The notes below the pieces were generated by a model. It saw only the letters and a program-made list of their open reading frames with translations, made no database searches and was not told the DNA's origin. Shown here one piece after another: positions 28,147-50,177 of a DNA stretch of 64,000 bases (position 1 is the first letter of the stretch; every line of letters starts with the position of its first letter). The position numbers were made by a program, and so were the translations under genes. This DNA comes from Candidatus Omnitrophota bacterium. GTDB lineage: Bacteria > Omnitrophota > Gorgyraeia > 2-01-FULL-45-10. The DNA lies in NCBI GenBank assembly GCA_003142795.1, contig PLNN01000019.1, positions 51,991 through 115,990 on the forward strand, given 5' to 3'.

Positions 28147-31100
28147 ATGAATTTTGAGGGCTTAGTTAAAAGTAAATCGGTAAAAAACGAGCTGACTTCC
28201 AAATGTCTTTTTACGGGCTGGCAAAGTCATAGAAAGAAAAAATGGATTTGCCTCATCGCCATTATTCTTACCTGTACCTTCATTCCTCAAAACATAGCAT
28301 ATTCTCAAGATGCCGCTCCTATTTGGTCTAAGGAACAGAACGGGAACGGCGATGTCAGAATTCCTAAAGAAATTGCCGTTATAAAAGAATCTTACGCCGC
28401 CTCAAACGGTAAGACCGTGATCAATATACAAGACGCCCATGCTTCTCTAGGCGCCCAAGAATCGATCGTAGCCGCACTAGACTTTTTGGTGGCTAATTAC
28501 GACTTAAAGTTGGTAGCCATTGAAGGCTCAAGCGGATACATCGATACCTCTCTTTTAAAAACATTTCCCAATGAACGCATGAGAAGGAGTGCCGCTGAAT
28601 ATCTCATGAAACAGGGCAAAATGTCTGCGGGTGAATTCTTTTCCATCACGTCAAATAAACCAATAGCATTATATGGGATAGAAGATAAGCCGTTATATAC
28701 TGAGAACGTAGAGCAATTCCGTAAAATATACGAAATAAACGAGTCGGCAGGCAAAGATATCAAGAAAATGCTTGAAGTCCTGAGATCTTTAAAGGGCAAG
28801 ATCTATTCCGACGATCTGAAAGCGCTTGATGAAGATGCGGATCTGCATATAAACGGTAAGATATCATTTAGCGCACGATGGAAATTAACCCGGGACCTGG
28901 CGGCAAGATACGGGATCGATTATAAAAAATATGATAATCTGGCGAAGCTTATAAGATCTTTTGATCTGGAAAAAGGGATAAATTTTGAGAAAGCGAATAA
29001 AGAACGTAGTTTATTAATAAATGAACTGAGCAAAAAACTTCCTAAAGACAGGCTTGAACAAGTAATATTAAAATCCGCCTCATTCAGCGCTCATAAAATT
29101 GCTCAAGGTGAATACTATGCCTACCTGCAGCGTCTTGTCAGGGAAAATGGCATAGATCCCAGCCCCTATTCCAATCTCATTGCGTATACAGATTATGCAG
29201 CCCTTTATGAATCTGTAGACATTTTAGCGGTTTTTGAAGAAATAAAGGATTTAGAAGGCCGCATCCAGAGTAAGCTATTCAAAAATGAGGACCAGAAGAA
29301 ACTTTACGAATTCTCGCAATACATTGGACAGTTAAAAGACCTGTTCGAACTGAAGCTTACAAATGTGGATTTTAAATGTATTTCTGAGAACGGAAAAGAG
29401 TCTAATGCCCGCGAGATCTCAAAATTCGTAAAAGATGCCGCCGTAAAATATAACGTTAAGATCGATAATAAAGAAAATGACCTCGCTGGAACATTCCGCA
29501 ACATACCCATCGCATTAGAATTTTATAAAACAGCCGAAAAGAGAAACTCTGCGATGCTCGCCAATACGATAAAGCGGATGAGCGCGGAGGGGCAGAGGAT
29601 GGCGGCGTTGATAACCGGCGGCTACCATACAAAAGGGCTGACAGAAAGGCTGAAAGAAAATAAGACCTCTTATTTTGTACTGCTGCCGACATTCGATCCA
29701 TCCAAGGGAGAAAGGCCCTACGCCGCGATACTCACGAATAAAAAACAATCTTATGAATCGTTTCTGGACACAGGCAAATATTATCTTGCCACAAGCGCTT
29801 TGCTCGAAGGCGCCGACTTAACCAAATTCGAAGAAGCCTTCGGGCATATATTGGAACAAACGATCGATGAAATAAAAACCAAAGTTTCTGATCCCGGAGA
29901 AATAGAAACAAGGCTATTATCATCAATACATAGCTGGGTAGAAAACCGCGAGTCTTTCCTCAAGGCTAACCCTCCGCCCGGGGAGTTTCGTCCCATAAGA
30001 TCGGAGGAATTTGAAAAATATCTTTTGAGATTGTCCGGAAAATTACTCAGCAAACCGGAGAAATGGGAAGAAAAGGACAGAGACACAAAAGGCGAGAACG
30101 CCGGCCATGCGCGCGAAATAATAGAGGATTTAATAAAACAAGGTAAAGTGGTTGAAGTCTTCCTTGCAAAAGACCACCTGGTGGCATATCGCGTGAGATG
30201 GATATACGATTACAAGCCGGGACAGATACAAGAACGAGACAATGTCTTCGAGGAAGAGATAAAAGTGAATCAGTTGTTTACCACGGTGCAGCAAAATCAT
30301 ATGATTAGTTGGATAAGAGTCCATCCCATTAACAGGGGCGCGATCAGGCTCCCGCACTTTCGGGTAATTCTTGATGATGTCAGCTTAAGATGGACGGATC
30401 ATATTGAAACGTCTAATATTTGCCATGCCGGACATCGCGATGGCGTTATCTACATAGGCGAACGTCTATTAACGTCCATGTTTGATTATGCCAGCGATCC
30501 CGTTAGAAATCTTGTCCTGGACCAGGATGAATATCAGCATTTATTAGACCCTAATTTTGTCTGTACGGTTGACAAAAAAGTACTGAAAAAAAGATTAAGA
30601 GCGGTTAACGAAAGAATAAAAGATATTTTAAGCAAACCCCCATCAATCGCCAAATATAAACTTAAAGTTTGCACCACGCATGACGAGGCTATTGCTAAGC
30701 ATAGCGGCATCAACCCCGATAACGGTAATATACGATGGGGTAACTTTCGGCCACGGATGAACCCCTATATAACAGATCGGATAGGCCCCATAACGGTTTC
30801 AGCCGGACTTTACATTATAAAAAGCAAGGGAGGCCCTTCTTTAGAAACAGCGGATACAAATATGAAAATATGGGTGGAGGGGAAGGACGAACCCGGCAAG
30901 TGGAATGAAATAAAGATGGATATGATTTACGCCAAGGATCTGGGCGGGGGGATCGCTTTTTCGTTTGTCGGCACTCTACCCGCTTTCTTCAAGGGCAAGT
31001 ACACATTTAGGTATTCAGTGGATGGCGGTAAGAACTGGCAATGGGCCAATAATGGCCCGGGAGACGATAGGGTAATAATCAGGCAGGAAGCCTTGCAACA

Positions 31101-34100
31101 GAGCGGGAAAAAATTGATTGCAAAGCAGGCGGATGAATATCTGATAGGTCCAAGAGGCGGGAAACATCGCACCATACGCCTTTATAAGCACGACTTGAAT
31201 TTAAGGTGGATATTTGATATGCCTTCTGACAGCTCCGGACGCCGGATAATTTTTAGCGACAATAACATAGGGTCTGTCCAAGGAAAGGGTGAAGGCAGCG
31301 TAAGTATGTATTACGATCCTCTAGAGAAAGCCGTCCTGATCAACATGGAGAGCATGGTATCTAATGGGCCGTCACAAGATAGTGTTGGCGTACTTCGAGA
31401 GGCCGGATGGGATTTAGCGCGCATAAAAATACCCATAGATGAAAATGGCATAGCGAAAGAAGTTATCCATGAACGCGAATTTATGGGGATTTCGCGTTCA
31501 GGCATCGCGATTCTTTTAAAACATGCGGGGGTAGATACAAAATTTAAAGATATTTACGCATTAGTTAAGCAGGAGTTAGTTCTTCGCGAAGTAGATAAGT
31601 TTGCTGAGGAGCAGGAAGCTCAAGATACCAAGACACTGTCAATAGATCCTATGAATAAGGTAGATGATTTCTTAAGAGATCCTGAGGCTTTTGGTGTTTT
31701 TGAGAATTTGCGGGGTGACATAAAAAAGATAGAAGATATAATTATATTCGCAAAACCATGGGAATTGAAACAATATGCCTTAGAACGTCTTAAAGGGCTT
31801 GTTAATAAAGGATATTACGGTAGAGATGAGTATTTTGAACTTGCGACCTACGCCGCTGAAAAAGACGGCCTTGAAGAAATGGCCTATATAGAGAGAACGA
31901 TAAGGCAAGATAAGTCTTTTCTTACCGATATGGGTATAGATGCCGCCAGGGTAGACAGCATTACTTTACATTGGCGCGCCCGCGGCCTTACCAAAGCCAT
32001 ATATCACGTGACAATAAACATGGACGACGGTACGGAGCGCATTTTTGCCATAAGCCTTATGAGGCCGCTCTATTCGCAATTAGGGTTTTCGATGGAAGAG
32101 ATCGAGAAGTCATTGGATCTCTGGTCAAAGATGAGCGAGGCAGGCGTAGACTACGTGCCCCACTTTTATGCCGTAAGGCGGATTAACGATTATCGGCCGA
32201 AATTATTCGATAAAGAACTGCCGGTGCATACGACGCCGGGACCTACGATAGTTTCCAACACTATCAATCCGGCAAAGATCATGTACAATGACTTATTGAT
32301 AATAGCAAGAGAGTTCGTTCAGGGCTATGACATGCCCGGATATTGCACACATTGTTGTACTACGCATCAGGAAGAGAGGGATGTATATGTCGCCGGAATA
32401 AGCGCGTACTTCCGGATGTGGAAAGAGGGCAAAAAAACTGTTGCCGACACAGGGCGAGCTCTATTAAATCCCGATCCGCGCAATGTTGTTGTGCATCCCG
32501 AAGGCAATAATTACCATGGCGTTGTTACCGATCTAAATGGTTTGCGGGAAGGGGTCGGCCTGGAGGAACTTTTAACATCATTGCAAAAAACAGGTTATGA
32601 AAAAAAGGACGTCCTGGCTGCCGCGCGGCAGACGCTCGATGGGGCAGAGTATGAATTTGCGAAACAATATTATAGAACAGGCGAGCATCCGGATTTTAAG
32701 GCTGTGTGTACAGAAGCCCTTACACGCGAGAGCATCCAAAAATTAGTTGCCGGAATATTAAAGAATCCGGCCAGGTTAAATAAAGAGGAGCAGGTAATCT
32801 CCCCCAAAAAAGTGAAATTTGCGCTTGACAGCATCTTCCACATCGTAGGAAGAAGTACGAATGATCTATCCGGCGAAGATAGGCGTTTAATACTCTCAAA
32901 GATAAAAAGACTTATTCGCCAGGGATTTCCAAATAAAATAAGATATTTTCGCATGAGAGAAAGCCAGCAACCGGTCGCTGAGATGCTATGTGCATTCGCA
33001 AAAGAAAATACGCACTATCTTGTAGAGGGGTTCCTTAATGATGAAGGGTTTTCTTCCGCAGGGAATAGTTTGGCGCGGGAAGGACACCTGCGCAGAGTGA
33101 TATTACGTCAGATGCTTAGGGAACTTTATCCGAAAGGGGACAAAGCCGATAACATAGAAAAGACTCTATTAGGCCCGGATTTACTGTTTCGCGAAGCCCT
33201 TAGTAACTACGCGTGGAAATGTCGTATCAGGACCGCCATGGAAGACCATGTGCTGTGCCGAAACCTGGTGACCTATCAGAAATCTCGCGACAAAGACGTG
33301 GCCAGGCGCGCCGCGGCAGAATATGTAGAGACTATTTATATGATAATGAAGAAAGAGATGGATGAAGACGGAAGGGTGTTTGGTAGTAGCGAAGAATTGA
33401 TCGATTATCTAAGGACACATTTCGGCGTAAGAAAATTTATTATCGCCGGCGGCAAGGGCACAAGATTCTCCCCCGGTGGTCTTATCCTAAAGCCTCGTTT
33501 TAAACCAGACAACTATAACACCAATATAAAACTCTCCAGGGAATCATCGGCTTTCGGAACGCTTGAAGACGTGATAGTCGTTGACGCCACCACCGTGTTT
33601 TACATACTTAAAGACAAGTGTCCCATAGCTGCATCTATAAAGAGTGGAATACGCGATAGGATAAGCAGCGAGATTTCAAAACTTGTGGATGCAGGTGTTA
33701 TAGATAGCCGAAAAGGGGCGGATTTATCAAGCGCTATACGCAGGATAGTCGATGAAGAGATGCATTACACTCGCAGGCCCGATGGTCTATGGGACCTATC
33801 CATGGTGTTGCGCTCCATAGAAGAAAAGGCAGGCGAGAAAGACTTGAAGAGCCATCTGGTCATTGATAAGATAGCGTACGCGATATTTAAGACAATAATG
33901 GATGACAAGACGCTGATAGATAAAAGTAAGATAGACGAGCTCTTTGGCAGAAATTGCATTGTGGTGTTGGACTCAGGGGAAGGGCACGGAGGCGCTTATG
34001 CTGAAGCATTGTCCGAACTTGAGACTAGCGGTAAATTGCAAGAAGCGCGCTATTCGGTCATAGTGTATGCCGATTCACCCGGATGGGGGCTCGATAGGTA

Positions 34101-37100
34101 TCCCAATTACGTCTTTACGTCTTACCTTGCCACGGTGAACCTTCTTTCTCCGAAAGTGAATGACTTACCGAAAGTTACCATAGCGGTAAAAAACCCGAAA
34201 GACGGCAGGGCTGAAGGACGCGCTCGCGTTTTTACCGAATACACCGAAAAATTTGCCAATACACCTATAGGACTTAAGGAATGGGCAGACATGTCTCCCG
34301 CAGAAAGAGCCGAATCTATCGATATGGCAAGGCAACACGACCAGAGATGGCTTACAAATGCCAATATTCTTATCTATGATACGATGTGGGCCGCAAAGAG
34401 ACGCGGTGTTCTCTATGAGCGCTATCGTCACGAACTCGGAGAAGCCGGCGAGCACAAACAAAGATCTTATGAGTATTGGGCTAGCGATTATTTAAATATT
34501 GCCGCCGCTGAATATGAAGAAACAGCGAAAGAAAACCCGGATGCTTCGCCTATGACACGTCTTGTGTATGTCGGAGAGAGCGCTCCGGACGCATTGAAGA
34601 CCCTACCGACGGCTCTAAATTATAGAGATGATCGCCAAGACATGATAATAAAAAAGATAAGGGCGATGGGAGTCGTTGTTGATCCTGATGTGACGATATC
34701 GATATCCAGCGATGATATGGGTGCGGCAAGTTTTGATCTGTGCAGAGCTATCGATTCTATTTTTGGGGACAATCGTGAAGACGCACCTGGATCCGGTCCA
34801 ATAAGACTTAAGGGCACCATACATCTTAGCGATACCGTAGTTGTCAAAAAAGGAGCTACTTTGGATGGCACCAAAAAAGACATTTCGCTGACAGGCAAGT
34901 GCGTTGTTGAAAGAGGCGTGGAGCTGGGTGGTGTTATCGCAGAAAATGAGCTCTTTACCAACAGCCGCCCATACGAACAGGAAAATGTTTACCTGACAGG
35001 GTTTCCGTTTTCGAGCCAGAGCACCGTTGAATCTGTCCCGGTTACCGGAATAGATTTCAGGGCTATGGGTATTATTGTAAACGATTCCACAAGAGTATGG
35101 ATCGCAAAAAAGGATAAAGATAGAAGTGACCTCGAGATCCTCAAAAACATTTTCGGAAACGACACAGACGGCCACAGGGTGACAGACCAGATATTTTTAT
35201 ATGGCGATATTGTTCTGGATGAAAACGTCAGGGTTGAAAATGGAACTATGTTGGACGGACGGCGTAATAGAGTAATTCTTACCGGTAAGACCCACGTAGG
35301 TAAAGGCGTAAATTTAAAAGGCGTCAAGGCGGAAGACACGGTGTTTGCCGGCATCGATTATCTCGATGTCTACCATTACAGGCAACCGGCACACGACTCT
35401 ATTATCGAGATCAATAATTCTCTTTTTGTTAATTCTTACATAGAGTTCGGCGCCAAGGTGCGTAACTCTATGGCAATAAATTCCTGCGTTATGACAGAAG
35501 CGCTAATAGCCGAATCCGACATTTTAGGAGAAATCGTTGTCCCAGGTAATGATATTACAAATCGCCGGTTAAAAGACATGGTTAATACCGTATCTCTGTC
35601 TGTCGAAATAGGAGATAGGATCGAAAAGGATTATGTGCCCGGGCCATTCCGCCTCGAAGAATTATCTCCGGAAGATCAGGTGGGCATAAGAGAAGGTTAT
35701 CAAAAAGTTGCCGCATATTTTTATGAAAGGATTATCCCAGTTAGATCGGTAAGGAAAAGATTGATCGAAGATACACAAAAGTTCTTATACAGTGATGTTA
35801 CGGCCAAGCTTACAATAGAACAGCTGAAGCAATATATATTCGCCAAGGCAAGGGAAAATATCAGAAGATACGGCTCAAAAAGCAATGAGGCGGAAAGGCC
35901 TGCGCGGCTTGCGGCAGTTATCAGGGCACATTTGCAGCCGGTAATGGAAGAAGCGCATAGCGTGGACATGGGAAATGCGCCGGTCGCCAGGAACACGTTT
36001 CGCAGACTGGCCATATTGAGCGCCAGGTTCAATTTTGTGGACTATTCTATAAATCCGGAAATTTTCGACACCGGCCATCTGGATGCGGCTGCAAAAAACC
36101 CCGAAAAAGATTTTACGCTTCTGGATCAATTTGCCGAAAAAGAACTTGCCATTGACGGTCTGAATAAATTTGAGGAGATGGTCTTTGGCAGCCGCAAAGG
36201 AACGTTCTTATATCTCACTGATAATATAGGAGAGACCGAAGCTGACGCGCCGATGTGGGAATTTCTGGTCAGGATGGGGCACACCGTAGTTATCGGTGCC
36301 AAAGATGAATTTTGCTTTGGAGACATCGACGTTGAGGGAGTAGAAAAGATAATAGCTGACCATCCATCTCTTTCGGAATACGAGAAAAGCGGGGGAATAA
36401 GAGTTATTAAGACCGGTTCTGCGAGCGAGGGTGTATTCGCCCATAGTTTTAGCCATGAAGTGCAGGAAGTCTTAAAAGATAAATCTCTCATAGCGTTAAT
36501 TTCTAAAGGTCAGGCCAACATATTCAGTCTATCCGCCCGGAACAACATGAAAATGCCGGTAGTAGCTATGCTTGTGTCAAAGTCTATTACAGCAAAGAGG
36601 ATCACCGGTATCGCGCCCAAAGTTGTCGGCGACAAAACGACATTTTGGCCCGTCATCGCCGTGATCCCGGCAGGGAGCCATATAATGGACTGTAAAGGGC
36701 CGAGCCAATTCGAGGGAACGCTTCAAAGGTTTGGCACCGTTCGTGACGAGCTGGTTTCCGGGGAAAGGTCGAGTTTCATCGTAGGTTTACCGAAAGGCAC
36801 ACCAAAAAAAATTGCGAGCATGGTAGAAACGGCGGTCAATGCCTCCCCGCTTCTCGGCAAAACGGCAAAAATAGAAGTATTCAGCGAAGGAGCAGAAGAG
36901 TTCGATGAAATGTTGGCAAAGGAAAGGACGAACGGTGTTTATCTTGACGAAAGCGTTTTGAGCCAGCTGGCTGCTCAACAAGATGCCCAGGACTTGATCA
37001 ATTCTGTGAGCGTCACCGTTTCAAGTATACTTATAGATTCCAGGACGCGCGAGGATCTGGAAAATATTTTGATCGAAATCGAGCAGAATATTGAAGCGAT

Positions 37101-37842
37101 CAAGAAATGCGACATCGACGAAGATAAAGCAAAATTGGAAGAGCTAATGAATAAGCATTCTAGCTACATAAAAGATCTCAAGTTGCTCATCTCCCGTAGA
37201 AAGCAAATAATAGAAAAGGCCTACAACAGTAATATTGATAGAATAGTGAGAGAGGCTACATCGTATGACAACAAGATAGCGGTGGCGACCACCGAAACTG
37301 TGGCCGGGTTCGATCCGTTCACATTCGACAACATAGGGAAAGCTGCGGCTCAAGGCATCGTAAACTATTTTATTTTTGGCGATATATTAAAAAGTCCCGA
37401 AGAGGCTGAAGCTTTTGTGAAGGCCTGCGGATACGAAGGCGATATGGCCGCTATACGATTCATAGACAAAAGAGGCCTTTCGTACAGGGAGTTAGCCGCC
37501 AGAATAGCCGCAGAAACTAACTTGCCCATGGAGAAAATAGGCATAAGGGCCGCTGCGGGCGAGCTTGAACTTCCGAAAAACGGGGAAGAAGCCGTACCTG
37601 GCGTATTATTAGAAGTACAGGCCAAGGGAGATATCTATTTAGCGATGAATTCCTACCAGGCACTGCTTAAGATACTAACACAACTAAAAGAAGGCGCTAC
37701 TCTTGAAGAGATTAAGATATCCGGCGTGGAAAAGACTGGTCGAAGGGGCGTATTCAATTATTCACCTCGAATAGATTACGATAAAGATATGAAAGATTAT
37801 AGAAATGCCATTGGGCTAATTTTGGTACGGACAAATGCGTAG
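28147..37842 (+). CDS. Giant secreted or anchored multidomain protein (3231 aa): N-terminal conserved domain, sugar-nucleotidyltransferase-like segment and left-handed beta-helix
   Basis: Uninterrupted ORF. The N-terminal KKKWICLIAIILTCTFIPQNIAYSQD reads as a signal peptide or anchor. It is paralogous to ORF3 over the N-terminal ~430 aa and over the NTP-transferase motif. Confidence 0.8.
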   Translation: MNFEGLVKSKSVKNELTSKCLFTGWQSHRKKKWICLIAIILTCTFIPQNIAYSQDAAPIWSKEQNGNGDVRIPKEIAVIKESYAASNGKTVINIQDAHASLGAQESIVAALDFLVANYDLKLVAIEGSSGYIDTSLLKTFPNERMRRSAAEYLMKQGKMSAGEFFSITSNKPIALYGIEDKPLYTENVEQFRKIYEINESAGKDIKKMLEVLRSLKGKIYSDDLKALDEDADLHINGKISFSARWKLTRDLAARYGIDYKKYDNLAKLIRSFDLEKGINFEKANKERSLLINELSKKLPKDRLEQVILKSASFSAHKIAQGEYYAYLQRLVRENGIDPSPYSNLIAYTDYAALYESVDILAVFEEIKDLEGRIQSKLFKNEDQKKLYEFSQYIGQLKDLFELKLTNVDFKCISENGKESNAREISKFVKDAAVKYNVKIDNKENDLAGTFRNIPIALEFYKTAEKRNSAMLANTIKRMSAEGQRMAALITGGYHTKGLTERLKENKTSYFVLLPTFDPSKGERPYAAILTNKKQSYESFLDTGKYYLATSALLEGADLTKFEEAFGHILEQTIDEIKTKVSDPGEIETRLLSSIHSWVENRESFLKANPPPGEFRPIRSEEFEKYLLRLSGKLLSKPEKWEEKDRDTKGENAGHAREIIEDLIKQGKVVEVFLAKDHLVAYRVRWIYDYKPGQIQERDNVFEEEIKVNQLFTTVQQNHMISWIRVHPINRGAIRLPHFRVILDDVSLRWTDHIETSNICHAGHRDGVIYIGERLLTSMFDYASDPVRNLVLDQDEYQHLLDPNFVCTVDKKVLKKRLRAVNERIKDILSKPPSIAKYKLKVCTTHDEAIAKHSGINPDNGNIRWGNFRPRMNPYITDRIGPITVSAGLYIIKSKGGPSLETADTNMKIWVEGKDEPGKWNEIKMDMIYAKDLGGGIAFSFVGTLPAFFKGKYTFRYSVDGGKNWQWANNGPGDDRVIIRQEALQQSGKKLIAKQADEYLIGPRGGKHRTIRLYKHDLNLRWIFDMPSDSSGRRIIFSDNNIGSVQGKGEGSVSMYYDPLEKAVLINMESMVSNGPSQDSVGVLREAGWDLARIKIPIDENGIAKEVIHEREFMGISRSGIAILLKHAGVDTKFKDIYALVKQELVLREVDKFAEEQEAQDTKTLSIDPMNKVDDFLRDPEAFGVFENLRGDIKKIEDIIIFAKPWELKQYALERLKGLVNKGYYGRDEYFELATYAAEKDGLEEMAYIERTIRQDKSFLTDMGIDAARVDSITLHWRARGLTKAIYHVTINMDDGTERIFAISLMRPLYSQLGFSMEEIEKSLDLWSKMSEAGVDYVPHFYAVRRINDYRPKLFDKELPVHTTPGPTIVSNTINPAKIMYNDLLIIAREFVQGYDMPGYCTHCCTTHQEERDVYVAGISAYFRMWKEGKKTVADTGRALLNPDPRNVVVHPEGNNYHGVVTDLNGLREGVGLEELLTSLQKTGYEKKDVLAAARQTLDGAEYEFAKQYYRTGEHPDFKAVCTEALTRESIQKLVAGILKNPARLNKEEQVISPKKVKFALDSIFHIVGRSTNDLSGEDRRLILSKIKRLIRQGFPNKIRYFRMRESQQPVAEMLCAFAKENTHYLVEGFLNDEGFSSAGNSLAREGHLRRVILRQMLRELYPKGDKADNIEKTLLGPDLLFREALSNYAWKCRIRTAMEDHVLCRNLVTYQKSRDKDVARRAAAEYVETIYMIMKKEMDEDGRVFGSSEELIDYLRTHFGVRKFIIAGGKGTRFSPGGLILKPRFKPDNYNTNIKLSRESSAFGTLEDVIVVDATTVFYILKDKCPIAASIKSGIRDRISSEISKLVDAGVIDSRKGADLSSAIRRIVDEEMHYTRRPDGLWDLSMVLRSIEEKAGEKDLKSHLVIDKIAYAIFKTIMDDKTLIDKSKIDELFGRNCIVVLDSGEGHGGAYAEALSELETSGKLQEARYSVIVYADSPGWGLDRYPNYVFTSYLATVNLLSPKVNDLPKVTIAVKNPKDGRAEGRARVFTEYTEKFANTPIGLKEWADMSPAERAESIDMARQHDQRWLTNANILIYDTMWAAKRRGVLYERYRHELGEAGEHKQRSYEYWASDYLNIAAAEYEETAKENPDASPMTRLVYVGESAPDALKTLPTALNYRDDRQDMIIKKIRAMGVVVDPDVTISISSDDMGAASFDLCRAIDSIFGDNREDAPGSGPIRLKGTIHLSDTVVVKKGATLDGTKKDISLTGKCVVERGVELGGVIAENELFTNSRPYEQENVYLTGFPFSSQSTVESVPVTGIDFRAMGIIVNDSTRVWIAKKDKDRSDLEILKNIFGNDTDGHRVTDQIFLYGDIVLDENVRVENGTMLDGRRNRVILTGKTHVGKGVNLKGVKAEDTVFAGIDYLDVYHYRQPAHDSIIEINNSLFVNSYIEFGAKVRNSMAINSCVMTEALIAESDILGEIVVPGNDITNRRLKDMVNTVSLSVEIGDRIEKDYVPGPFRLEELSPEDQVGIREGYQKVAAYFYERIIPVRSVRKRLIEDTQKFLYSDVTAKLTIEQLKQYIFAKARENIRRYGSKSNEAERPARLAAVIRAHLQPVMEEAHSVDMGNAPVARNTFRRLAILSARFNFVDYSINPEIFDTGHLDAAAKNPEKDFTLLDQFAEKELAIDGLNKFEEMVFGSRKGTFLYLTDNIGETEADAPMWEFLVRMGHTVVIGAKDEFCFGDIDVEGVEKIIADHPSLSEYEKSGGIRVIKTGSASEGVFAHSFSHEVQEVLKDKSLIALISKGQANIFSLSARNNMKMPVVAMLVSKSITAKRITGIAPKVVGDKTTFWPVIAVIPAGSHIMDCKGPSQFEGTLQRFGTVRDELVSGERSSFIVGLPKGTPKKIASMVETAVNASPLLGKTAKIEVFSEGAEEFDEMLAKERTNGVYLDESVLSQLAAQQDAQDLINSVSVTVSSILIDSRTREDLENILIEIEQNIEAIKKCDIDEDKAKLEELMNKHSSYIKDLKLLISRRKQIIEKAYNSNIDRIVREATSYDNKIAVATTETVAGFDPFTFDNIGKAAAQGIVNYFIFGDILKSPEEAEAFVKACGYEGDMAAIRFIDKRGLSYRELAARIAAETNLPMEKIGIRAAAGELELPKNGEEAVPGVLLEVQAKGDIYLAMNSYQALLKILTQLKEGATLEEIKISGVEKTGRRGVFNYSPRIDYDKDMKDYRNAIGLILVRTNA
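28415..29700 (+). other. Conserved N-terminal domain shared by ORF2 and ORF3, possibly a TraB/GumN/Tiki-like fold
   Basis: ORF2 has INIQDAHASLGAQ...AIEGSSGYIDTS...ERNSAMLANTIKRM...ALITGGYHTKGLTERLKE. ORF3 has IHIQDAHCNYEAQ...SVEGADGFVDTA...VLITGGFHTTGISKILEG. The C-terminal RN...GG.H.G motif resembles the TraB/GumN GaaHLxG motif. The fold assignment is tentative. Confidence 0.35.
33439..33474 (+). other. Sugar-phosphate nucleotidyltransferase glycine-rich motif (IIAGGKGTRFSP) in ORF2
   Basis: Matches the GGxGTR(L/F)xP signature of ManC, GalU and RmlA-type NTP-transferases. Confidence 0.5.
34800..35540 (+). other. Left-handed beta-helix (hexapeptide-repeat) region in ORF2
   Basis: Successive [LIV]-G-x-x-x-x hexads: IRLKGTIHLSDTVVVKKGATLDGTKKDISLTGKCVVERGVELGGVIAEN and VRVENGTMLDGRRNRVILTGKTHVGKGVNLKGVKAED. 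Confidence 0.5.
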
Positions 37843-37983: not shown

Positions 37984-38000
37984 AACTAAGGAGAGTATAA

Positions 38001-41000: not shown

Positions 41001-44000
41001 GAAGTCGCGGCGATGCGCGAAATACAACGCCAAAGTTTCGTGGAAGGAACTTATAGAATAGCCACGGCCAAGGAGCTTGGGTTTACGGAATTGGGCGATT
41101 TCCGGTTTGTCGTGCATTACGGCCTCGAAGCCAGGATAGAGAAATATAATAAAGAGCACGGAACGAACCTTAAGACCGACAGGATCGACGCAGGCACAGG
41201 CGGCGAGGAATACGGTTATGGGCTCAGGCAGGCGCATATAAGCGCATATCGCTTTAATTCTCTGATCAGAACGAAATCCGGCAAAAGAGTGCTGGAAGTA
41301 ATAGCCACTCACGAATCTTTGGGCCACATCGCGATCGCGAATAAAGAAGGCGGCTCAGCTGCCTATAAAATGAAGCTTGCCGACCCGGCCATGAACGAAG
41401 AGGATGTCGTGGACTTTCATGTCCCCGGAGCTAATACAAGATGTGCATACGACTGGCTTCCAGGCAACATTACCATACGGCAGTTATTAGCGCAGATAGA
41501 TGAAAGCCGCAAAAACGATGAATTATACCAGATGGAAGAAGGGCTTCTCACCGATACCGCTTATGGTACAGCCGCTCGTGACGAGATAGTAAGACTGAGA
41601 AAAGAAGGCAAGGATTATGAGGCAGGCGAATTTGCAAAGTTAGTTTACGCAAGAAGAGCCAATATCGACAGGATGAAGAAAGTGCTTACAGAGCCTTATA
41701 AAGATTATGACGTCATCATCATAAGCTCTACAACCGAAGCTGAAGCAAAAGACCAGGAAGCTAATCTCAGGAAAATTTTCGGCGGCATCAAGACATCGAA
41801 CAATGCGATGGGTAACAAGGTGTGCGTCCTCTCTATGCTTGACACTTCGGAAGGTAACAACCTGATAGGGCAAAATGTTACAGAGGCCGAGGCAATAGAG
41901 GCGTTTAAGAAATGGGCAACCGAGAACGGCTTACCGGAAACGGACCTTACTAAGCTCCAGGCCGAAAAAAAGGTAAAAGTGGCAACATATCATAACGGCG
42001 GCAAGGCCGAGAGATTTTCTCCGGCCGGCCAGGCATTGAACCTGTCAAGGGCAGACCAGCTGCTTGTTGGAAGCGTCTTTGACATGAATGGCAAACCTAT
42101 AGAATTAAATCTTCTTTTGACCGTCATTCTATCCACTGCATTTAACGCTGAAACGAACGATGGATCGATGCACGATGTGTATTGGGCGAACCAGGCAGAA
42201 GTTGGCGCAGTGTTGAGTGTGATCAGGCATGGATACGTCTTTAACAAATTTGCAGTTGCGGTGCCGGCAAATCCCAGCATGAAAGACCTGTATGATTACG
42301 GGACGTTGATCGCGACAAAAGATGGCCGTATACTGAAGTTCCTCGGCAATAAGAAACTTACCGAGAAAAATAGTGCCGGCAGGTATATCCCAACCTCAGA
42401 TCCATACTGGCGTGCTAAATATGACGAGCTGATGGAGGCCGCCAAAGAGGGCAGGGCATATTTTGATTACGGTTCATTCAGCATGAGCTTAGATATGCAG
42501 AATGCTCTTCTCGAATATTGGCGCGACGTTAAAAAAATATTTACTGTTATGCAGAATGATGTAAATGGCAGAGCAGGTATATCGCGCGAGATCGATCCTC
42601 AGATGACCCAGAATATTGTTCCGATAGTAAATGGTGTAATGGGCCATGAGGCTGAGCTAAGTCAGCTTCCGACTATCACAGAATTGGATTCAGCTGCTGA
42701 TAAGAACGCGATTTTGCACAAAGCCTATCTTGCATTATTAAATATAATGGCTCCCGAATACAAAACCATATTAGAAGGTCTATATACGAAAGCAAAAGAG
42801 GATTTAGTAAAAAAGGAAAAAAAGGAGCCCGGGAAGAAAGATAACGATCAGAATCTCCAGGCTATATACGAAACGATCGAATTTTTCATCAGATACAAAG
42901 ATACTGTTAATTTAATGAAAGGATTTGGTATAATAGATTTCGGGCCCGGCAGCCATTGGTTCGCATATAAGAGGCTGCTCGATATGGGTAACGAGAAATT
43001 CTTTATGTTGGCCGATATGACCGGGCAGAGCATGGAACTCGAGCCCAATGGTAATGATCTACGTGCGACCGCGACTGTCCAGGATAAGGTAAAGGCTGAA
43101 GATGCCCGCAGGCTAAGGAGTATACCAAACAGCGCTGTCTGCGTATTTGAGGTGAACGGGCAAAAGGTAACGCTTAGCGCCGGGCAGGCGGCTAAAGGGT
43201 GGGAAGGCCATGGCGTTAAAGTAAAGGGCTCTATTATACAAGGGAATACCGTTCTTCTGCCCGGCTCAGAGATCGTAAATAGCGGCGTCAATAATTCCCA
43301 GGGCCGGATAGCGGCTGCAAATTCATATATAGATTCATCGACCGCCCCGAAAATAGAGGCTAAGAATAGCATTGTAGTAAACGGCGTTGATGGAAAACTT
43401 ATTATCGCGAATAGCGAAATTGTAACCGACGCGTTCAGGCCGGTTATACATGACGACAGGTTCGCGGACGGGCATACGAGGATGCGAGCGCCCGTAGGAT
43501 ACGATCCTAAGCCGGGCGATGAAGCCCTGGCGGCCAAAATGTCGGATGCCGTCAGGTTCGGCGATAACAAATATTCATTTGAGGAGATCAGGAATATGTC
43601 GTGCGACAAGGACGCGAACAAGGCGATCGAGAAGACGGCAAGAGATAGTGTACATGCGAGGCTCCAAATGATATCCGAACGCTGCAAATATTGTATAGAT
43701 CATTTCAAGCTGTTGAAATTCGGAACAAGCGGATTGAGAGACAATGACTCCGCTCTTACCGATATGGAGGTATATATAAACGTCCGCGGCCTTGTGAGAT
43801 ATCTTACCGGCATCAACTCGAGGATGGACGTGCCGGACCATATTAAGAAACTGGTATATGAAGGAGCTATTCAAAAATTGTCCGACATAGTGCTTGCAGG
43901 AGATCTCAGGCCGTCCACCCCCCGGATTTTAAAAGCAGTCGCAGTTGGTATAGTAGCGGAAGGCGGCGCGCCTGTATATATAGGAAAACAGCCAACGCCC

Positions 44001-47000
44001 CTGCAAGTTCTCTACTCATTGAAGAAATCAATGGCAGGATTCATGACTACAGGCAGTCATATCCCGCTCGGTATGAACGGCCTTAAAGGTAACAGGCCAA
44101 ACGGTGAGTTGTTAAAACAAGAAGAGAAACTCATCCTGACGGAAGTCGCCAAAGTGAGAAACGGGGAATATCTTCAAACCGATGCCGAAAGCATGTTCGA
44201 TAGGAACGGATTTTTCAGGACGGACGGCAAGATTTCCGGAAACCAGCGCAATATCATTTCGAAAGCCGAAGAAGCCCTTGATCCGGAGAATCCGAATAGA
44301 CGCGAAGCGGAGAAACTATACGAAGACCGTTATTTAGGCGGTCTGGGAAGGTGCCTCGAGGGCGTCGACGTTCTCTTCTGGCAGCATTCTGCGGTTGGCC
44401 GCGATATCATTCCCGATATTATGAGAAAGATGGGAGCCAACATTACGACCGTTGCGCCTCTCGATGTGAGTAAAGGCGAATTCTGCTCACTAGATACGGA
44501 AGATGTTAAGCCGCAATTCAAGCAGCTGGTAAAGAAATTGATGCAAGATAATAATAAGAAGGTCCTTATCACAACCGATGGCGATTCCGATAGGCCCGCC
44601 GTATTTATACTGGCGAAGAATCCTTTTAAGAATGGCGAGGAAGACGTTTATTATTTAACCGGAGATAAGCTCGCTATAATTACGGCGTTGTTATTGAAGC
44701 CCAAGTTCTTTGCGATACCGGTTACGTCAAACCATATAGCTCTGCAGAAATTACGTGATGCGGTCCCCGGCATTAAAATAGAGCTTACAGATGTAGGCTC
44801 TCCTTATATTGCCGAGGCTATGTATGCGAATAACGAAGGCGATCAGGCCAATGGCTGCGAGGTCAATGGAGGATATTTCATAGGGTCTCAGGTATTCAGG
44901 ATGCCCGAAGAAACAATAGCGAAAATAAGGGCATTGAACAGGAGCTCCTCTTCTCCGCTCGCTGAGCCCACCGGCGAATTTTCATATCTTCCTTCGCGGG
45001 ACGCGTCAATCGCGTTAATAAGCATACTGCTTTCGGCGAAACTGAAGAATATGACGGTCGAGGAGTTGATAAGGGACACGTTCAGCGGAAAATACGCGGC
45101 TGAGACATCGGCCGGGCTCGTTGAGAACGTATCCGATAAGCAGCGCACGCCCGGATGCGAAGATTACCAGAAAGAGATGGGACCTGCAATAGCGAAGAAC
45201 CTTTCTCCGAAAAACGCAAATATACTCGAGGTGATATTTGAGGGAGATGAAGTAAGGTATGTGCTTAAAGACGATGCCTCAGGAAAAAAACGCGATGCCG
45301 ACAAGCCGTTGAAGGCAGAGGCATTGGCTATAAAGTCACGGCTTGAGGCGAGATTGAAAACTATAGCCGGCTTGCAGGGCCAAAATATCGTACAGATCAA
45401 TTTTAAAAACGGCGTTCGTGTATTCTGGTCGAACAGGGAAACTATACATTTACGAGCGTCCAGCAACGCGGCGCAGTTCAGGGGATATACCCTGGCACCC
45501 GGCGAGATGTTCGATCCCCGGCCGGAGCAGATGGTTGAAGAGATGACCGCGCCAAGCACCGGGCCGCTCGTTAAAATAATTCAAGATTATATAAATGAAA
45601 CTACCGGCAAAGCTGTCTCTACTGCCGCGGCATCGGCCTCGTCTTCCAGGAAATCGCCCGGCAGGTTCGCGACATCGGCAGACGCGCCGCAGGGCGGACA
45701 CTTGCGCGAGCTAGTTGCTATCGGTACAAAATACTCGCTTGATTCGGTCGATCCCGACCTGATAGATAGAGAGATCGCCAACGGAGCCACCAGTGCTACG
45801 TCTAATCCTATTATAATATCGAACCTTGTCAAAAAAGTGCTTGCGAATATCGAGAAGAACGGCGGTCCGCAGACTGAATTCGAGAAAGGAATTTATTCGA
45901 TCCTCGCAAAATCTCCCAATGAGGAAGTCGCGACCAGAGAAGCGACCAAATTTATCATAGGTTTCGTCGCGGCAAAATTCAGGCCCGTTTATGACAGAAC
46001 AAGCAAGAATGACGGATATGTAAGCATTGAAGTCGATCCTCGGCTAGAGGACACGAAAGAAGGCCCGTATGCAACATGGACGCATGAAGAGCGGGTGGCC
46101 GAAGTTAAGCGTCAAGCCGTCGAATTCAGCAAGATCGCGCCTAATATCCTGATAAAGATACCTGCTACTAAAGCCGGACTTGACGCCCTGGAAGATCTCG
46201 CCTATCAAGGCATAAACCTTAACGTTACTCTTATATTTACGCCTGAACAGGCTTATGCGGCAAGAGAGAATGTATGGAAAGGCCTCCAAAGAAGAAAAGC
46301 TGAAGGGAAGTCCTTAGACATAAAGAGTGTTTATAGCATCTTTGTCAGCCGGACCGATGATTATACGGCTAAGAAAGCCCCGGATCTGCCTTCAAATGTT
46401 CAGGGAGAGATTGGAATATACATCGCGAAGCTCATATATCTTCAGAATAAAGAATTCTGGCAGGATAAAGGACTTTCCTTGAGCCAGGAAATGATATTTG
46501 CTTCTACCGGCAGTAAATCAAAATTGGTAGCCGGGATCAAGACCGAAGCGGATGTTTTAAAACTAGTCGAATTAGCGACATCCGGATCCAAGGAAGCAGA
46601 AGATGCGATGAATGCATTAAAAGAAATGTGTAGATATGTCTATGAACTTGCAGGAGACGATATTCAGACCAATCCGCCCCTGACAGCATTTGCCGTGAAT
46701 GTCGCACCATTTGCGATAACCGAAAAAAGAGTAGGTGCATTACCTGCTTCCGAAGTTCGGAAGATAATGATACAATATTTAGATTCTCACATGCAGGAAC
46801 TTTATGAGGCACTAATGACTGATGGCATTGCGAAATTCGTGAATCCGCAAGTTGAGTTGGTAAAGAACGTTGCAGCGGCTATGGCAAAAATTCCGAGATC
46901 GCCTGCCGCAACTCCGGAGAATATCGTGAAAACGCTCGTAGATAATCGTAATCCTCAGGCTGCTGTGGCCGGCATATTCGATAATCGCCAGGAGAGTGAA

Positions 47001-50000
47001 TATCTGCCTGCCCTGAGTGCAGTCGCTAATGAATTGAATAAGCGCTACGCAACTCTTACGTCCGATCAGAGGGATGAGCTTTGGCCGGTATTAGAAGAGT
47101 TTTATTCTACCCTGACCAGACGAGCGTGGAGCACCGTAAATGACGTAAATATAGCACGCGGCCTTCAGATAATGACCGGCAATACCATTGCCATTCAGAA
47201 TCTGATCGAGATAGGCCTGAGCGGAGCAAAGAGTATACAACTTACCGATAAGGCCGACGAGATGTTGAAAGCCGAAGATAAAGATAGAGGGCCAAGCTAC
47301 ATTAAAGCTTTTTCTATTCCTAAATCAATAGGCATTGCCGAAAGCGAAGGCCGCCCGGGTGTTTATTGGAGAGGCGCCGAAGGCATTACAAAACTGGGAC
47401 CCAATGGCGAAAATATATTGCCGTGGGCCGCATACGCAGCGAATCAGCATGATGAATATAAGAAATTCATAGGTTATACTATGCTTCATGTGAGCGATTT
47501 TCACGTTACTGTGTTTGTAAATCAATTTCTTCCAAATTCGATCCAATATACGAGCACGGGCGCAGGCCACTATCAGGGAGATAAACTTGATGTAAAAGTT
47601 GTTACAAGAGGTGCCCTTCGCCAGATGCAGGACGTATATAATGCAACCGGCAATCGGACAACAACGACAGCGCAGGATGCAGGAAAAGGTAGATGGGTAT
47701 TTGCATCTCCGCGCACAGTCGACTATACCGTTCCGCTTAGGCCAATAACGGTATTCAATGATGAAAGCATATTACCGCTGGGTACAAATATGCGCGCAAT
47801 CGGACCTGAAACAGTGCAGGTTGCTCCTTACGCGACTATTGATTTCAATGGTAAGCCTGTATTGGTCAAAGCTGTCAGCGACGCTCCCGTGTTAACGCAA
47901 CTGGAATCATATCCCGACCGTAGCGCCGTCCTGACTAGAGCGCCGGTACAAATAGCAGAATCGGAAAGGGTAACTGTTTTGGATGCGAACACAGTAACAG
48001 CTATAGGAAGGTTGAATGATCTTATCGAATCCGGACACCCGCTTAATATCACATCAACATATAATTTAGGAAAGAACGGTTACAAGTGGGGCGAGCCAGC
48101 CGGAGTGAGTTTCATAATCGGGCTTGAAAGTAATACTCTGCCAGCCGTCCTGCAGGAAGCCATCAGCACCAAAGACCGCGTTGCCGAAAGATTGATAGCC
48201 GCAGGCGTGATAGACTTGGGTGAAGGCTATAGCCTTCCGACGAGCGTATTGTCATCGTATTTTGGCCAGGAGCCTGAAATTACAACTAAGGTGCTTGCTT
48301 CAGCGATGCCTCTGTCTGTGCAACTGCATACTTTTGCCGAGATGATAATCCCTCTCGAAAAAGGGACTGCATGGATAGGGGTCAAAGAGAATGTCACAGC
48401 CGAACAATTAATAGAAGCGGCTAAAGAAGGCAGGATCCAGGATGTTCTGCAGGAAGTTGAGCTTGAGACGGGAGTGCCGATGATCGTTCCTGCTTATCTG
48501 CCGCATGCTTACGGAAAAGTGAGGGTCTATGAGGTTAAGGCAGTTACGCCTCAAGAAGACGCTACCGGCACAACCTCATTCTTTGACAGGCTGAAATATT
48601 TAAGCCCTGAATTTGAAGCTCAATTGAAGGCTTTGAACATTACATCGTTACAGATGACTCCGGAGCAGTTAAGACAGCTCAATCCCGGAAGAGAGAAGAA
48701 AGACGTTCTTACGATGCCTGAAGCAACTTTGGCCGAGACGAAGAAACGATTGGCTGAGGCCGAAAGCTCAGGCGCTTTGAATAAAACGAATATCGAGAAT
48801 TTGAAGTTTACACCGGTCATTGTGAGCGCGCCATCCATGAAGAATACCGAAGAGGCGAGGCTTGAGGTAATGGGCGTGGCAGAAGGACGTTTTATAACGG
48901 TCCGTTATACGGTTGCGGAGAATCAGTCGATCCAGTCGGGCCCGATTCTATCCGGCAGAAAGCACACGCTTTTTGTATCAGAAGGCGAGATCGAATTAAA
49001 TACCGATCAGGGCGTTACTACAACATTGAAAAGAGGCCAGGATATAACTGTGACGCCTAATATGCAGTATTACACCATCAGGTCACTGAAAGGCACGGCC
49101 GTTATTTATACACAGGTTCCGCCGAAGAAAGAATTGCCCGCAACTGAAACCGCGAGGCTTGCAGCGCAGATCAATAATAATCAGAAAAGCCTGAAGGCTG
49201 CCGTATCGAAAGGAAGAGAGGTCATTCTCGCCCCGAACGACAGGACCTCCGAAAGATTATCTGTTACAAGCAGCGCGAAACAGGATATCCCGCAGGCGAA
49301 AGAGAAAGAGGTGGCCTTATCGCTCGAAGACGGCAAAGCGGCTATCGTTAAAGAGAATGGCGATACGGTAGAATTAAAGCCTGGTAATCCCATAATCGTT
49401 CCGGCAGGCATGCCGTTATCGATACAGTCACCGGTTGTGGCGATAGTGAAAATTGCTTATACGGAATCTCGTGAAGAGAGCGCTTCATTTACGTCCATTA
49501 ATGTCACAAAGCGTAATCTCGCGGCGATCACAGCCACAGGTAAGATAGACCTGCTGGTTAACGACAGCCTTTACCAGAAGGACGGCGACTATGCCAATTC
49601 TGTCGCAAAAGAGCAGGAATTCTGGAAGGGGTTGAACGTCGACGTCGTATTGGTAAAATATAGCGATGAGCTTGGATTGAGCGACGCGGCCGATAAGTCG
49701 ATCAGGAACGGCGCTATTCCCATTTTGGTCGGAACGGCAGAAAATTTCCAGAAGGCGGATGTTTCTGATCCAAAGATAGCGAAATTGTTGTTGAAGGCAA
49801 AGATATTGCCTCCAATCGATCTGGCGAAGATAGAAGGTCGCCGCGGCTGGTTCTTTACAAGAGAAATAGAAGCCAGCGCGATCCTTTTGGCTGCTACAAC
49901 CGTCCAGAATATACGAGATCATGATCCGATAGCGGAAGACCTGCAGAAATTGATGCAGAAATTCGGTTTGCCGATAGACGACATCAACCAGCTCTTATGC

Positions 50001-50177
50001 ACGATGTCTTTCGAGGAATTGCAGAAGCTGGGAAGCGATTTCCTCGATGCGAATGGCATGCCTAGCCTGTTAGCGAAGATAGAACTGGTAAAACGGCTAT
50101 TGATAACGCTGCCTGCTAAACCATTCAATGCCGACGACGATCTTCACAGGCGCCGCGAAGTTCTCTGGAGCGTGTAA
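38001..50177 (+). CDS. Giant secreted multidomain protein (4058 aa): N-terminal conserved domain, NTP-transferase-like motif, LbH, phosphohexomutase domain, transaldolase domain and cupin-like segments
   Basis: Uninterrupted ORF with a strong RBS (aaggagag, 6-nt spacer, ATG 38001). The N-terminal signal-peptide-like segment is [22 protein letters not shown]. The embedded enzyme domains are listed as separate features. Confidence 0.85.
   Translation: [4058 protein letters not shown]
38225..39515 (+). other. Conserved N-terminal domain, paralogue of ORF2 28415-29700
   Basis: See the ORF2 domain feature. Protein identity across the domain is about 30-35% by eye. Confidence 0.35.
41987..42031 (+). 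other. Degenerate NTP-transferase glycine-rich motif ([15 protein letters not shown]) in ORF3
   Basis: Aligns with ORF2 IIAGGKGTRFSPGG but has GKAER in place of GxGTR. Confidence 0.3.
43200..43440 (+). other. Hexapeptide-repeat (LbH) segment in ORF3
   Basis: [70 protein letters not shown]. Confidence 0.4.
43700..45520 (+). other. Complete alpha-D-phosphohexomutase (PGM/PMM superfamily) domain embedded in ORF3
   Basis: It has the N-terminal [10 protein letters not shown] motif, the catalytic-serine loop [11 protein letters not shown] (equivalent to TASHNP), the metal loop TTDGDSDRP (DGDxDR) and the phosphate-binding loop [15 protein letters not shown] (RxSGTEPxxRxY-like). It is collinear with the free-standing paralogue at 58964-60622. 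Confidence 0.8.
45700..46560 (+). other. Complete transaldolase-family domain embedded in ORF3
   Basis: It is collinear with E. coli TalB. [13 protein letters not shown] aligns with [28 protein letters not shown] aligns with [57 protein letters not shown] aligns with [40 protein letters not shown], with the Schiff-base Lys conserved. [11 protein letters not shown] aligns with ISPFVGRILDW. Confidence 0.8.
48900..49450 (+). other. Cupin-like segments in ORF3, possibly mannose-6-phosphate isomerase type II-like
   Basis: [57 protein letters not shown] and [34 protein letters not shown] have the G(X)5HXH...E...G...P.G..H...N shape. No strict motif was verified. Confidence 0.3.

Follow-up and report, generated by a model that had tools for sequence, protein, structure and literature searches.

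The very long proteins of Omnitrophota, a widespread phylum of ultra-small, host-dependent bacteria, pose an open question about function and location. The phylum is described as host-dependent or predatory, peptides of its giant open reading frames (ORFs) rise in attached cells, and giant proteins at the surface have been proposed as adhesins (PMC10066038). A 64,000-nucleotide stretch of a Candidatus Omnitrophota bacterium genome (assembly GCA_003142795.1, contig PLNN01000019.1, positions 51,991 to 115,990; hereafter the window) presents this question in compact form. Two of its genes, ORF2 and ORF3, encode proteins in which cytoplasmic-type phosphosugar enzymes stand behind N-terminal segments with the features of export signals.

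The closest described systems come from the same phylum. For the giant 'Archaeovorins', West-Roberts et al. (bioRxiv 10.1101/2023.11.21.568195) list domains of the TIM, PGI, FBPase, PGM/PMM and FBA types. A 2026 preprint (bioRxiv 10.64898/2026.06.07.730766), which does not specifically cover ORF2 or ORF3, reports that, of 916 long Omnitrophota proteins, 94% carry signal peptides or transmembrane (TM) helices and 435 (48%) receive a DeepTMHMM signal-peptide call, and concludes that the metabolic content of a 147,155-amino-acid (aa) giant lies on the periplasmic or extracellular face. In proteins of more than 10,000 to 30,000 aa with dozens of predicted TM helices, one miscounted helix can explain a call of 'extracellular enzyme'. 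ORF2 and ORF3 reduce the puzzle to its simplest form, with one signal and no further hydrophobic segment, and ORF3 carries an intact PGM and transaldolase. The explanation by overlooked TM helices raised in 2023 is inapplicable to these two proteins, because neither has a TM candidate beyond this single segment.

A sequence-only reading of this DNA had called the arrangement unusual biology. The puzzle is real and phylum-wide, but the claim was overstated, since both preprints already contain it. What looks new is the single-segment topology together with conserved modules at the two ends of the proteins, termed here the N-module and the C-module. Both are apparently undescribed: the available text of the two preprints contains no description of either, and erythromycin esterase, TraB and Tiki are not named in that of the 2026 preprint. 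The explanation preferred here is that ORF2, ORF3 and ORF4 are separate genes on one Omnitrophota-specific plan, with products that would be exported; this full statement, architecture plus export, is assigned a probability of about 0.47. The architecture itself can be affirmed with high confidence as an Omnitrophota-only modular plan of signal, N-module, variable cargo and C-terminal module, while an extracytoplasmic location of ORF2/ORF3-type enzymes stands at or slightly below even odds.

Signal-like N-termini of ORF2, ORF3 and ORF4

The N-termini of ORF2, MNFEGLVKSKSVKNELTSKCLFTGWQSHRKKKWICLIAIILTCTFIPQNIAYSQD, and ORF3, MVKPLSGFRNTIVCKTISLFLLQAFLFYNTSFASID, have the basic n-region, hydrophobic core and small-x-small site that the sequence-only reading had described. 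Judged by classical rules (n-, h- and c-regions, the -3/-1 rule and the positive-inside rule), they read as cleavable Sec signals with N-in/C-out topology, and signal peptidase I would probably cut the signals of ORF2, ORF3 and ORF4. The -3/-1 rule places the predicted cut (marked by a slash) at N-I-A-Y-S/Q (AYS/QD) in ORF2 and at N-T-S-F-A/S (SFA/SID) in ORF3. Flank charges on the N and C sides are +5 and -2 in ORF2, and +4 and +2 in ORF3. Both h-regions are uncharged and, at 13-15 aa, shorter than a TM anchor. By inspection, neither N-terminus contains a Tat twin-arginine (RR) motif, an in-register lipobox or a prepilin motif.

A Kyte-Doolittle scan (19-residue windows, threshold 1.6) finds a single strongly hydrophobic segment in each of ORF2, ORF3 and ORF4, located at the N-terminus. 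Further windows at or above 1.6 occur at residues 107-125 of ORF2, in the N-module, and at residues 2224-2242 (PGM) and 3798-3816 (cupin) of ORF3; because they fall inside folded domains, they are best read as domain cores rather than TM helices. In the AlphaFold2 (AF2) model of ORF3, residues 7-28 form a helix, and a disordered linker (29-46) separates it from the domain. The GH113 beta-mannanase of the same window, which has a discoidin-type domain and is taken to be a secreted enzyme, has a closely similar leader, FLFTNVSCA/QA, compared with FLFYNTSFA/S in ORF3.

A mis-called start codon was considered as a source of these N-termini and ruled out. No other in-frame start in ORF2 or ORF3 would leave out the hydrophobic segment, the ribosome-binding site of ORF3 is in place (GGAG at 37990-37993, 8 nt 5' of the ATG), and residues are conserved through the hydrophobic segment. 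The longest reading of ORF4 begins at 50128, which gives it a 50-nt overlap with the end of ORF3. A start at position 50197 (ATG, MSKTIKR...), 20 nt past the ORF3 stop, is more plausible and provides the protein with a canonical signal-like N-terminus.

Conservation of the signal across the family

A search with the first ~560 residues of ORF3 returns 180 proteins, and all those with a source name come from Omnitrophota. The connection with a host-attached lifestyle suggested by the sequence-only reading fits this lineage, whose members are described as host-dependent or predatory (PMC10066038). Signal statistics, drawn from 120 of the 180 N-module homologues, identify a hydrophobic segment in 112; the remaining eight look N-terminally truncated. 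Across the 112, flank charges average +3.5 N-terminal to the segment and -0.4 C-terminal to it. The N side is the more positive in 106 and the less positive in four, and 100 have a small-x-small candidate site. Counting the c-region, the uncharged stretch has a median length of 21 aa. Among 15 full-length relatives, F25 (-9) and N29 (-5) are invariant and A33 (-1) is at least 90% conserved, while the subgroup motif [ND]-[IV..]-[SAGT]-[FWY..]-[AS] occurs in 31% of family N-termini versus 3.5% of shuffled ones, a nine-fold enrichment.

This conservation in 112 of 120 homologues, together with the signal-like N-terminus of ORF4, argues that the N-termini are signals and not products of chance. 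The proposal that they are of the export type is upheld by the n/h/c rules, the homologues and the charge bias. An uncleaved anchor with the bulk of the protein in the cytoplasm, which had been offered as an alternative, would need an N-out/C-in orientation and is disfavoured because the charge bias runs the opposite way. The short cores and the conserved small-x-small site also speak against it.

Conserved modules at both ends

The N-module common to ORF2 and ORF3 comprises ~470 aa. Its AF2 model has a predicted local distance difference test (pLDDT) score of 86 and contains a parallel beta-sheet core flanked by helices. D83-x-H85, E113 and H481 of ORF3 are invariant in sets of 33 and 15 sequences. 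Reference residues of the TIKI superfamily are E3900-x-H3902, E3930 and H4030 in RRSP, and H85/E113 in Bcr135 (PMC6254334). The N-module resembles the TIKI/TraB-PrgY-GumN/Ere/ChaN group in having an acid-x-His, a Glu and a His, the group's 2His/2Glu catalytic set, with the same 28-residue His-to-Glu spacing as Bcr135 and RRSP, and differs in that its core is split by an all-helical insertion of ~300 aa. Structural assignment and motif agreement together suggest that it is a distant TIKI/TraB/erythromycin-esterase/ChaN-like hydrolase, and its conserved residues are consistent with an active enzyme, either a peptidase or an esterase. Many members of the superfamily, such as Tiki, PrgY and ChaN, work outside the cytoplasm, and we know of no report of its fusion to enzyme arrays. 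When the N-module and ORF2 were compared with PDB sequences, by profile and by single sequence, nothing useful was returned.

The N-module also exists on its own, in standalone signal plus N-module proteins of ~500 aa in other Omnitrophota. On a related 283-kb Omnitrophota contig (locus L001, positions 10001-21494), it forms a standalone gene flanked by a 6624-aa protein rich in methyltransferase and FAD-binding domains and by three signal-bearing proteins (FBPase_3, PPDK and F420_oxidored), showing that it can be encoded apart from cargo.

Among the structures nearest to that of the N-module are HopBA1, RRSP and PMT, effector or toxin domains that act in the host cytoplasm. They lend some support to the idea that these proteins are exported metabolic effectors, secreted and then delivered into host or prey, or acting on leaking contents, and redirecting host carbon to importable forms. 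Such a role would account for the signal peptides, and it would solve the cofactor problem, ATP and sugar phosphates being abundant in host or prey. Omnitrophota have been proposed as predators or epibionts, with giant-ORF peptides up in attached cells (PMC10066038). Even so, the idea is improbable: it is purely inferential, no translocation or pore-forming domain was identified, secretion-system genes are absent from this window, and strings of housekeeping-type enzymes 3,000-4,000 aa long are unlike known effectors. The helical insert of the N-module (ORF3 aa 168-467, window 38502-39401) gives alpha-pore-forming toxins of the ClyA/AhlB/YaxA/MakE type as top Foldseek rows, at E 0.1-0.9 and probability of at most 0.18, which is not significant. 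The likeness to ClyA/AhlB/YaxA-type toxins is driven by this insert, at E of at least 0.1, and is treated as noise; in view of the predatory lifestyle proposed for the phylum, it counts as a lead at most.

At the other end, a similar tail closes ORF1 to ORF4 and most long signal-bearing proteins of related loci. Its consensus is hydrophobic-x-hydrophobic-P-x(2-4)-P-[IF]-[DN], followed by a terminal helix to [SA]-[VLA], and in the ORF3 subgroup ~200 conserved residues precede it. A phmmer search with the ORF3 C-module against 1.84 billion representatives recovers 66 cluster representatives, each matching at the C-terminal end of the protein. Word-indexed searches with the C-module, as a single sequence and as a 39-row profile, gave no matches, and AF2 modelling from a 13-row alignment produced no usable fold (pLDDT 45). 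Because proteins of ~930 aa made of signal, N-module and C-module alone exist, the enzymes look like cargo between two 'bookends'. The C-module may act as a docking or sorting signal.

One possible partner is ORF1, which has ~25 hydrophobic segments, TPR/HEAT repeats, a methyltransferase dependent on S-adenosylmethionine (SAM) and a CofD-like domain; it follows the same gene grammar and is a possible scaffold. Hydrophobic triplets adjoin its TPR blocks repeatedly (MSFLLPFIIVAYFASMGAV at aa 2299 versus SLFLPFIISIGIFASFGAV at aa 4094), and this recurrence suggests internal duplication.

Enzyme cargo of ORF2, ORF3 and their relatives

Domain searches bear out the description of the downstream regions as cytoplasmic-type phosphosugar enzymes, with PGM/PMM and transaldolase (TAL) in ORF3 and an ARMT1-like phosphatase as the sole domain match in ORF2 (Table 1). 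In the ORF3 mutase, PGM_PMM domains I and II are significant (aa 1958-2202), domain III scores weakly and Pfam does not report domain IV. When the mutase is aligned to 4hjh and to the signal-less PGM of the window (58964-60622), each of the four active-site loops (phosphoserine, metal, sugar and phosphate) proves to be retained, as TGSHIP (Ser), DGDSDR (metal), EVNGG and RASSNA. The TIM-barrel transaldolase, aligned to 3clm/7bbw, retains IKIPAT (Schiff-base Lys), SIEVDP (Glu), NVTLIF and FVSRTD, and with them the catalytic Lys, Glu, Asn, Thr, Ser and Arg. Both domains score well below NCBIfam equivalog cut-offs, and the mutase is 29% identical to the signal-less PGM over the full length, with large insertions. 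Their sequences mark them as diverged paralogues, not decayed copies.

The low scores, the low identity and the insertions, along with the adhesin role proposed for surface giant proteins (PMC10066038), could instead point to catalytically dead or repurposed folds that serve as sugar-binding modules of a surface adhesin, much as the sequence-only reading had suggested. This 'binding module' explanation is disfavoured because the active sites are intact, with all four phosphohexomutase loops and the transaldolase catalytic positions retained. The cargo of relatives is made up mostly of well-scoring enzymes, including very well conserved PGK and glutamine synthetase, and no bona fide binding modules were found. 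The explanation is therefore held to be highly improbable.

Other regions are less clear. An HExxH motif lies ~250-350 aa past the N-module in 11 of 15 and 12 of 16 ORF3-type relatives, after a conserved HPGRG-like stretch; ORF2 lacks it. The region may form a second, zinc-peptidase-like domain. The YDVIIISS and HNGGKAERF stretches of ORF3 resemble motifs of an NDP-sugar pyrophosphorylase of the fucose-1-phosphate guanylyltransferase type, a likeness that is unconfirmed. NTP_transferase scores in two orthologues per cargo survey, at positions that may or may not match the GGKGTRF of ORF2. A relaxed Pfam scan (E <= 5) of ORF2, ORF3 and ORF4 yields no further credible domains and leaves much of ORF2 and ORF3 unannotated; the nucleotidyltransferase, kinase-like and beta-sandwich regions read by eye in these two proteins are unconfirmed by it.

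Scanning species-representative genomes identified 191 confirmed N-module stretches, and the 80 loci kept come almost entirely from metagenome-assembled genomes (MAGs) of Omnitrophota. About 25 loci (CAZ*/CAY*) derive from MAGs labelled 'uncultured Planctomycetia' and one (L081, JAJCYG010000042.1) from a genome labelled 'Actinomycetes'. Because all other named matches are Omnitrophota, these labels probably reflect mis-binning or misclassification. Within the 80 loci, the N-module heads a complete ORF with more than 1500 residues past the motif in 32 cases and stands alone in five.

Two Pfam cargo surveys, of 15 and 16 full-length members, detect PGM in 11 and 14 members, respectively. The other cargo includes NTP_transferase, UDPGP, PGK (4e-67), PFK, PGI/GPI, TAL, PMI, CofD and ARMT1. 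Signal-bearing neighbours that lack the N-module carry FBPase_3, PPDK, F420_oxidored, Gln-synt_C+SIS (Gln-synt_C 3e-69), HEAT+GNAT and PGM.

The presence of signals on such a coherent set of glycolytic, gluconeogenic and nucleotide-sugar enzymes would also fit an internal membrane-bounded compartment as the signal's target, by analogy with the anammoxosome enzymes of another lineage of the Planctomycetes-Verrucomicrobia-Chlamydiae (PVC) group. PVC-group bacteria include lineages with internal compartments. Still, Omnitrophota cells are ultra-small, the window contains nothing that speaks to the idea, and the available parts of 10.1101/2023.11.21.568195, 10.64898/2026.06.07.730766 and PMC10066038 report no such compartment for Omnitrophota, making this a very improbable target.

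Export weighed against a cytoplasmic location

Under the preferred explanation, a Sec-type signal peptide would thread the polypeptide across the cytoplasmic membrane, and the hydrolase N-module of ORF2 and ORF3 might then serve to process or tether it. The hexose-phosphate and nucleotide-sugar enzymes, with their active sites intact, would act in the periplasm, in a surface 'coat' or in a zone of contact with host or prey. Here, the cargo comprises PGM/PMM, transaldolase, a cupin-type isomerase, the ARMT1 phosphatase and probably NDP-sugar pyrophosphorylases, and in relatives also PGK, PFK, PGI and UDPGP. Finally, the C-module might dock the protein, perhaps to the TPR/HEAT-rich, multi-pass ORF1.

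Sequence rules favour export through the charge bias, the short core, the cleavage-type site, the single segment and an N-module superfamily whose members are often extracytoplasmic. Biochemistry points to the cytoplasm, and several observations weigh against export. All recognisable cargo domains belong to cytoplasmic enzyme families. The enzymes are of the housekeeping type and catalytically intact, and adhesin, carbohydrate-binding module (CBM), Ig, FN3 and dockerin domains are absent among the ~31 full-length members, leaving no domain of extracellular type. Several cargo enzymes need ATP, another nucleoside triphosphate (NTP), acetyl-CoA or SAM (PGK, PFK, PPDK, glutamine synthetase, NDP-sugar pyrophosphorylases and GNAT), which are not available in a normal periplasm. 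This cofactor demand makes the paradox broader and sharper than the sequence-only reading had seen.

The N-module assignment has its own counterweights: a Pfam/NCBIfam scan of ORF3 aa 1-560 gives no match, and thus none to PF01963, PF05139 or PF04187, and Foldseek finds nothing in the PDB at E <= 0.001. The h-region sequence is unusually conserved in the ORF3 subgroup and could therefore represent a retained, interacting helix, not a disposable signal. In ORF1, the CofD/HAD loop (207-1480) and the methyltransferase loop (4158-4529) are cytoplasmic by flank charge; the positive-inside check, a hint at most, is consistent for these two large loops and conflicting for four. The 2026 preprint notes that most complete genomes lack ordinary genes for hexokinase and PGI (10.64898/2026.06.07.730766), which hints that the copies in giant proteins may serve the cell's own cytoplasmic metabolism.

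Most of these observations fit the main rival, a membrane-tethered cytoplasmic metabolon. There, the N-terminal helix would anchor the protein to the inner face of the membrane (reversed or monotopic, or packing against the TM helices of ORF1), the enzymes would remain in the cytoplasm beside glycan or 'coat' synthesis, and topology rules would mislead in this lineage. Exclusively cytoplasmic-type cargo that is often NTP-dependent, intact active sites, cytoplasmic flanks of the ORF1 enzyme loops and the missing hexose-entry genes all agree with this arrangement, as do the invariant Phe and Asn of the h-region, which are expected of a helix with a partner. West-Roberts et al. also suspect mislocalisation (10.1101/2023.11.21.568195). 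The metabolon is nevertheless somewhat unlikely, given the positive charge on the N side in nearly all family members, cores that are short for a TM anchor and a small-x-small site conserved without reason in an anchor. Moreover, a second hydrophobic segment that could flip the topology is missing from ORF2 and ORF3, and the standalone signal plus N-module proteins resemble ordinary exported ones.

The location of these proteins in the cell is not decidable by computation. Host delivery or an internal compartment would each reconcile the sequence evidence with the biochemical evidence, and neither has direct support in this analysis. A wider proposition is that Omnitrophota run hexose-phosphate and nucleotide-sugar steps, including ATP/NTP-dependent ones, outside the membrane on Sec-exported polyproteins with a TIKI-like module first and a docking or sorting module last. 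It is unlikely, but if true it would imply an energised extracytoplasmic metabolic space, either a host-fed periplasm or 'coat' or an interface with the host cytoplasm, a form of compartmentation not described in bacteria. Either outcome matters: export would mean ATP-dependent central metabolism outside the cytoplasm, and its failure would mean that signal-peptide rules break down systematically across a phylum. The shared N- and C-modules offer handles for cataloguing the cargo set and finding the partner machinery.

Gene layout and neighbouring genes

Four long genes run in one direction through the window and are followed by a sugar-utilisation cluster (Table 1). The possibility that they are a single giant gene split by stops was rejected, since every ORF has its own AT-rich, promoter-like upstream region, signal and C-module. 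The region before ORF2 (27990-28140) is AT-rich and promoter-like. Upstream of ORF3 (37879-37995) lies a sigma-70-like TTGACA-17-TATAGT, and a perfect hairpin, AGTGGACGTTTAAACGTCCACT, directly precedes the GGAG ribosome-binding site; it could be a regulatory stem-loop.

The downstream region, 52501-63157, forms a mannan/mannoside utilisation cluster. It encodes two Gfo/Idh/MocA oxidoreductases, a xylose-isomerase-like TIM barrel, two ATP-binding cassette (ABC) permeases, a GH130 mannoside phosphorylase, an MFS_2 transporter, the signal-less PGM/PMM and the signal-bearing GH113 mannanase with its F5/8 type C domain. The mannose theme of this cluster agrees with the PMM and PMI-cupin content of ORF3.

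Table 1. Long genes of the window and the features located within them (coordinates are window positions)
Feature	Position	Strand	Description
ORF1	1-27915	+	At least 9304 aa; 5' end open at window edge
ORF1 C-module	27283-27912	+	Tail ...IEQFKVVLMNA
ORF2	28147-37842	+	3231 aa; signal peptide, N-module, ~2000 aa unannotated, ARMT1-like phosphatase, C-module
ORF2 signal-like N-terminus	28147-28308	+	aa 1-54; n-region end HRKKK, h-region WICLIAIILTCTFIP (15 aa), c-region QNIAYS
ORF2 N-module	28354-29826	+	QDAH aa 95-98, Glu aa 125-126, GGYHT with His494; 33% identical to ORF3 module
ORF2 GGKGTRF	33448-33468	+	aa 1768; sugar-1-phosphate nucleotidyltransferase-like by eye; no Pfam match, unconfirmed
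ORF2 ARMT1-like damage-control (sugar-phosphate) phosphatase	35827-36588	+	aa 2561-2814; PF01937, E 7.6e-13
ORF2 C-module	37210-37839	+	Ends ...NYSPRIDYDKDMKDYRNAIGLILVRTNA
ORF3	38001-50177	+	4058 aa; signal peptide, N-module, HExxxH region, pyrophosphorylase-like region, PGM/PMM, transaldolase, cupins, C-module
ORF3 signal-like N-terminus	38001-38099	+	aa 1-33; n-region MVKPLSGFRNTIVCK, h-region TISLFLLQAFLFY (13 aa), c-region NTSFA
ORF3 N-module	38163-39560	+	Alpha/beta core with ~300-aa helical insert; D83, H85, E113, R453, H481 invariant
ORF3 HESLGH	41310-41327	+	aa 1104-1109; one residue longer than HExxH of most orthologues
ORF3 YDVIIISS ... HNGGKAERF	41706-42017	+	aa 1236-1339; read by eye, no profile match
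ORF3 alpha-D-phosphohexomutase (PGM/PMM)	43755-45536	+	aa ~1919-2512; Pfam/NCBIfam; PDB 4hjh, E 3.9e-35
ORF3 transaldolase	45735-46865	+	aa 2579-2955; PF00923 TAL_FSA, E 4.8e-36
ORF3 cupin matches (two, weak)	48963-49415	+	aa 3655-3690, 3767-3805; one mannose-6-phosphate isomerase cupin; below Pfam cut-offs
ORF3 C-module	49395-50174	+	Ends ...ITLPAKPFNADDDLHRRREVLWSV
ORF4	50197-52446	+	HAD-like DMDGT motif, signal-like N-terminus MSKTIKRALGALLILVFAVQTCYCGD, C-module; Hydrolase_3 only E 0.056
ORF4 C-module	51814-52443	+	Related tail

Comparison with known systems

The mutase and transaldolase of ORF3 share domain order and catalytic residues with canonical PGM/PMM and transaldolase, yet they are highly diverged and sit inside a 4058-aa polypeptide behind a signal peptide. 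Moonlighting glycolytic enzymes on Gram-positive surfaces are ordinary single-domain copies found outside the cell without signal peptides, whereas the Omnitrophota proteins are dedicated fused paralogues with a conserved signal. The cellulosome, with its dockerin-cohesin pairing, provides an analogy for the locus as a whole: various catalytic proteins end in one conserved terminal module and lie beside a giant, repeat-rich membrane protein, here ORF1. The C-module, however, has no sequence or structural similarity to dockerins.

The nearest relatives remain the giants of the same phylum, the 'Archaeovorins' and the 'multi-enzyme metabolic cluster' class. As described in the two preprints, these giants also have N-terminal signal peptides and glycolytic-type domains predicted outside the membrane, and the shared cargo comprises PGM/PMM, PGI, FBPase, PPDK, F420 oxidoreductase, HEAT/TPR and methyltransferases. 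ORF2 and ORF3 differ in size, at 3,000-4,000 aa compared with at least 30,000 or at least 10,000 aa, and in their single hydrophobic segment. No SecA-DEAD, C39 or S8 domains were detected in them. They consequently fall outside the 'giant gene' class of West-Roberts et al. (at least 30,000 aa, many TM regions and a divergent SecA-DEAD), while sharing its Omnitrophota origin and its content of sugar-phosphate enzymes, HEAT and TPR. ORF1, with at least 9304 aa, ~25 hydrophobic segments and an end open at the window edge, comes closer to that class.

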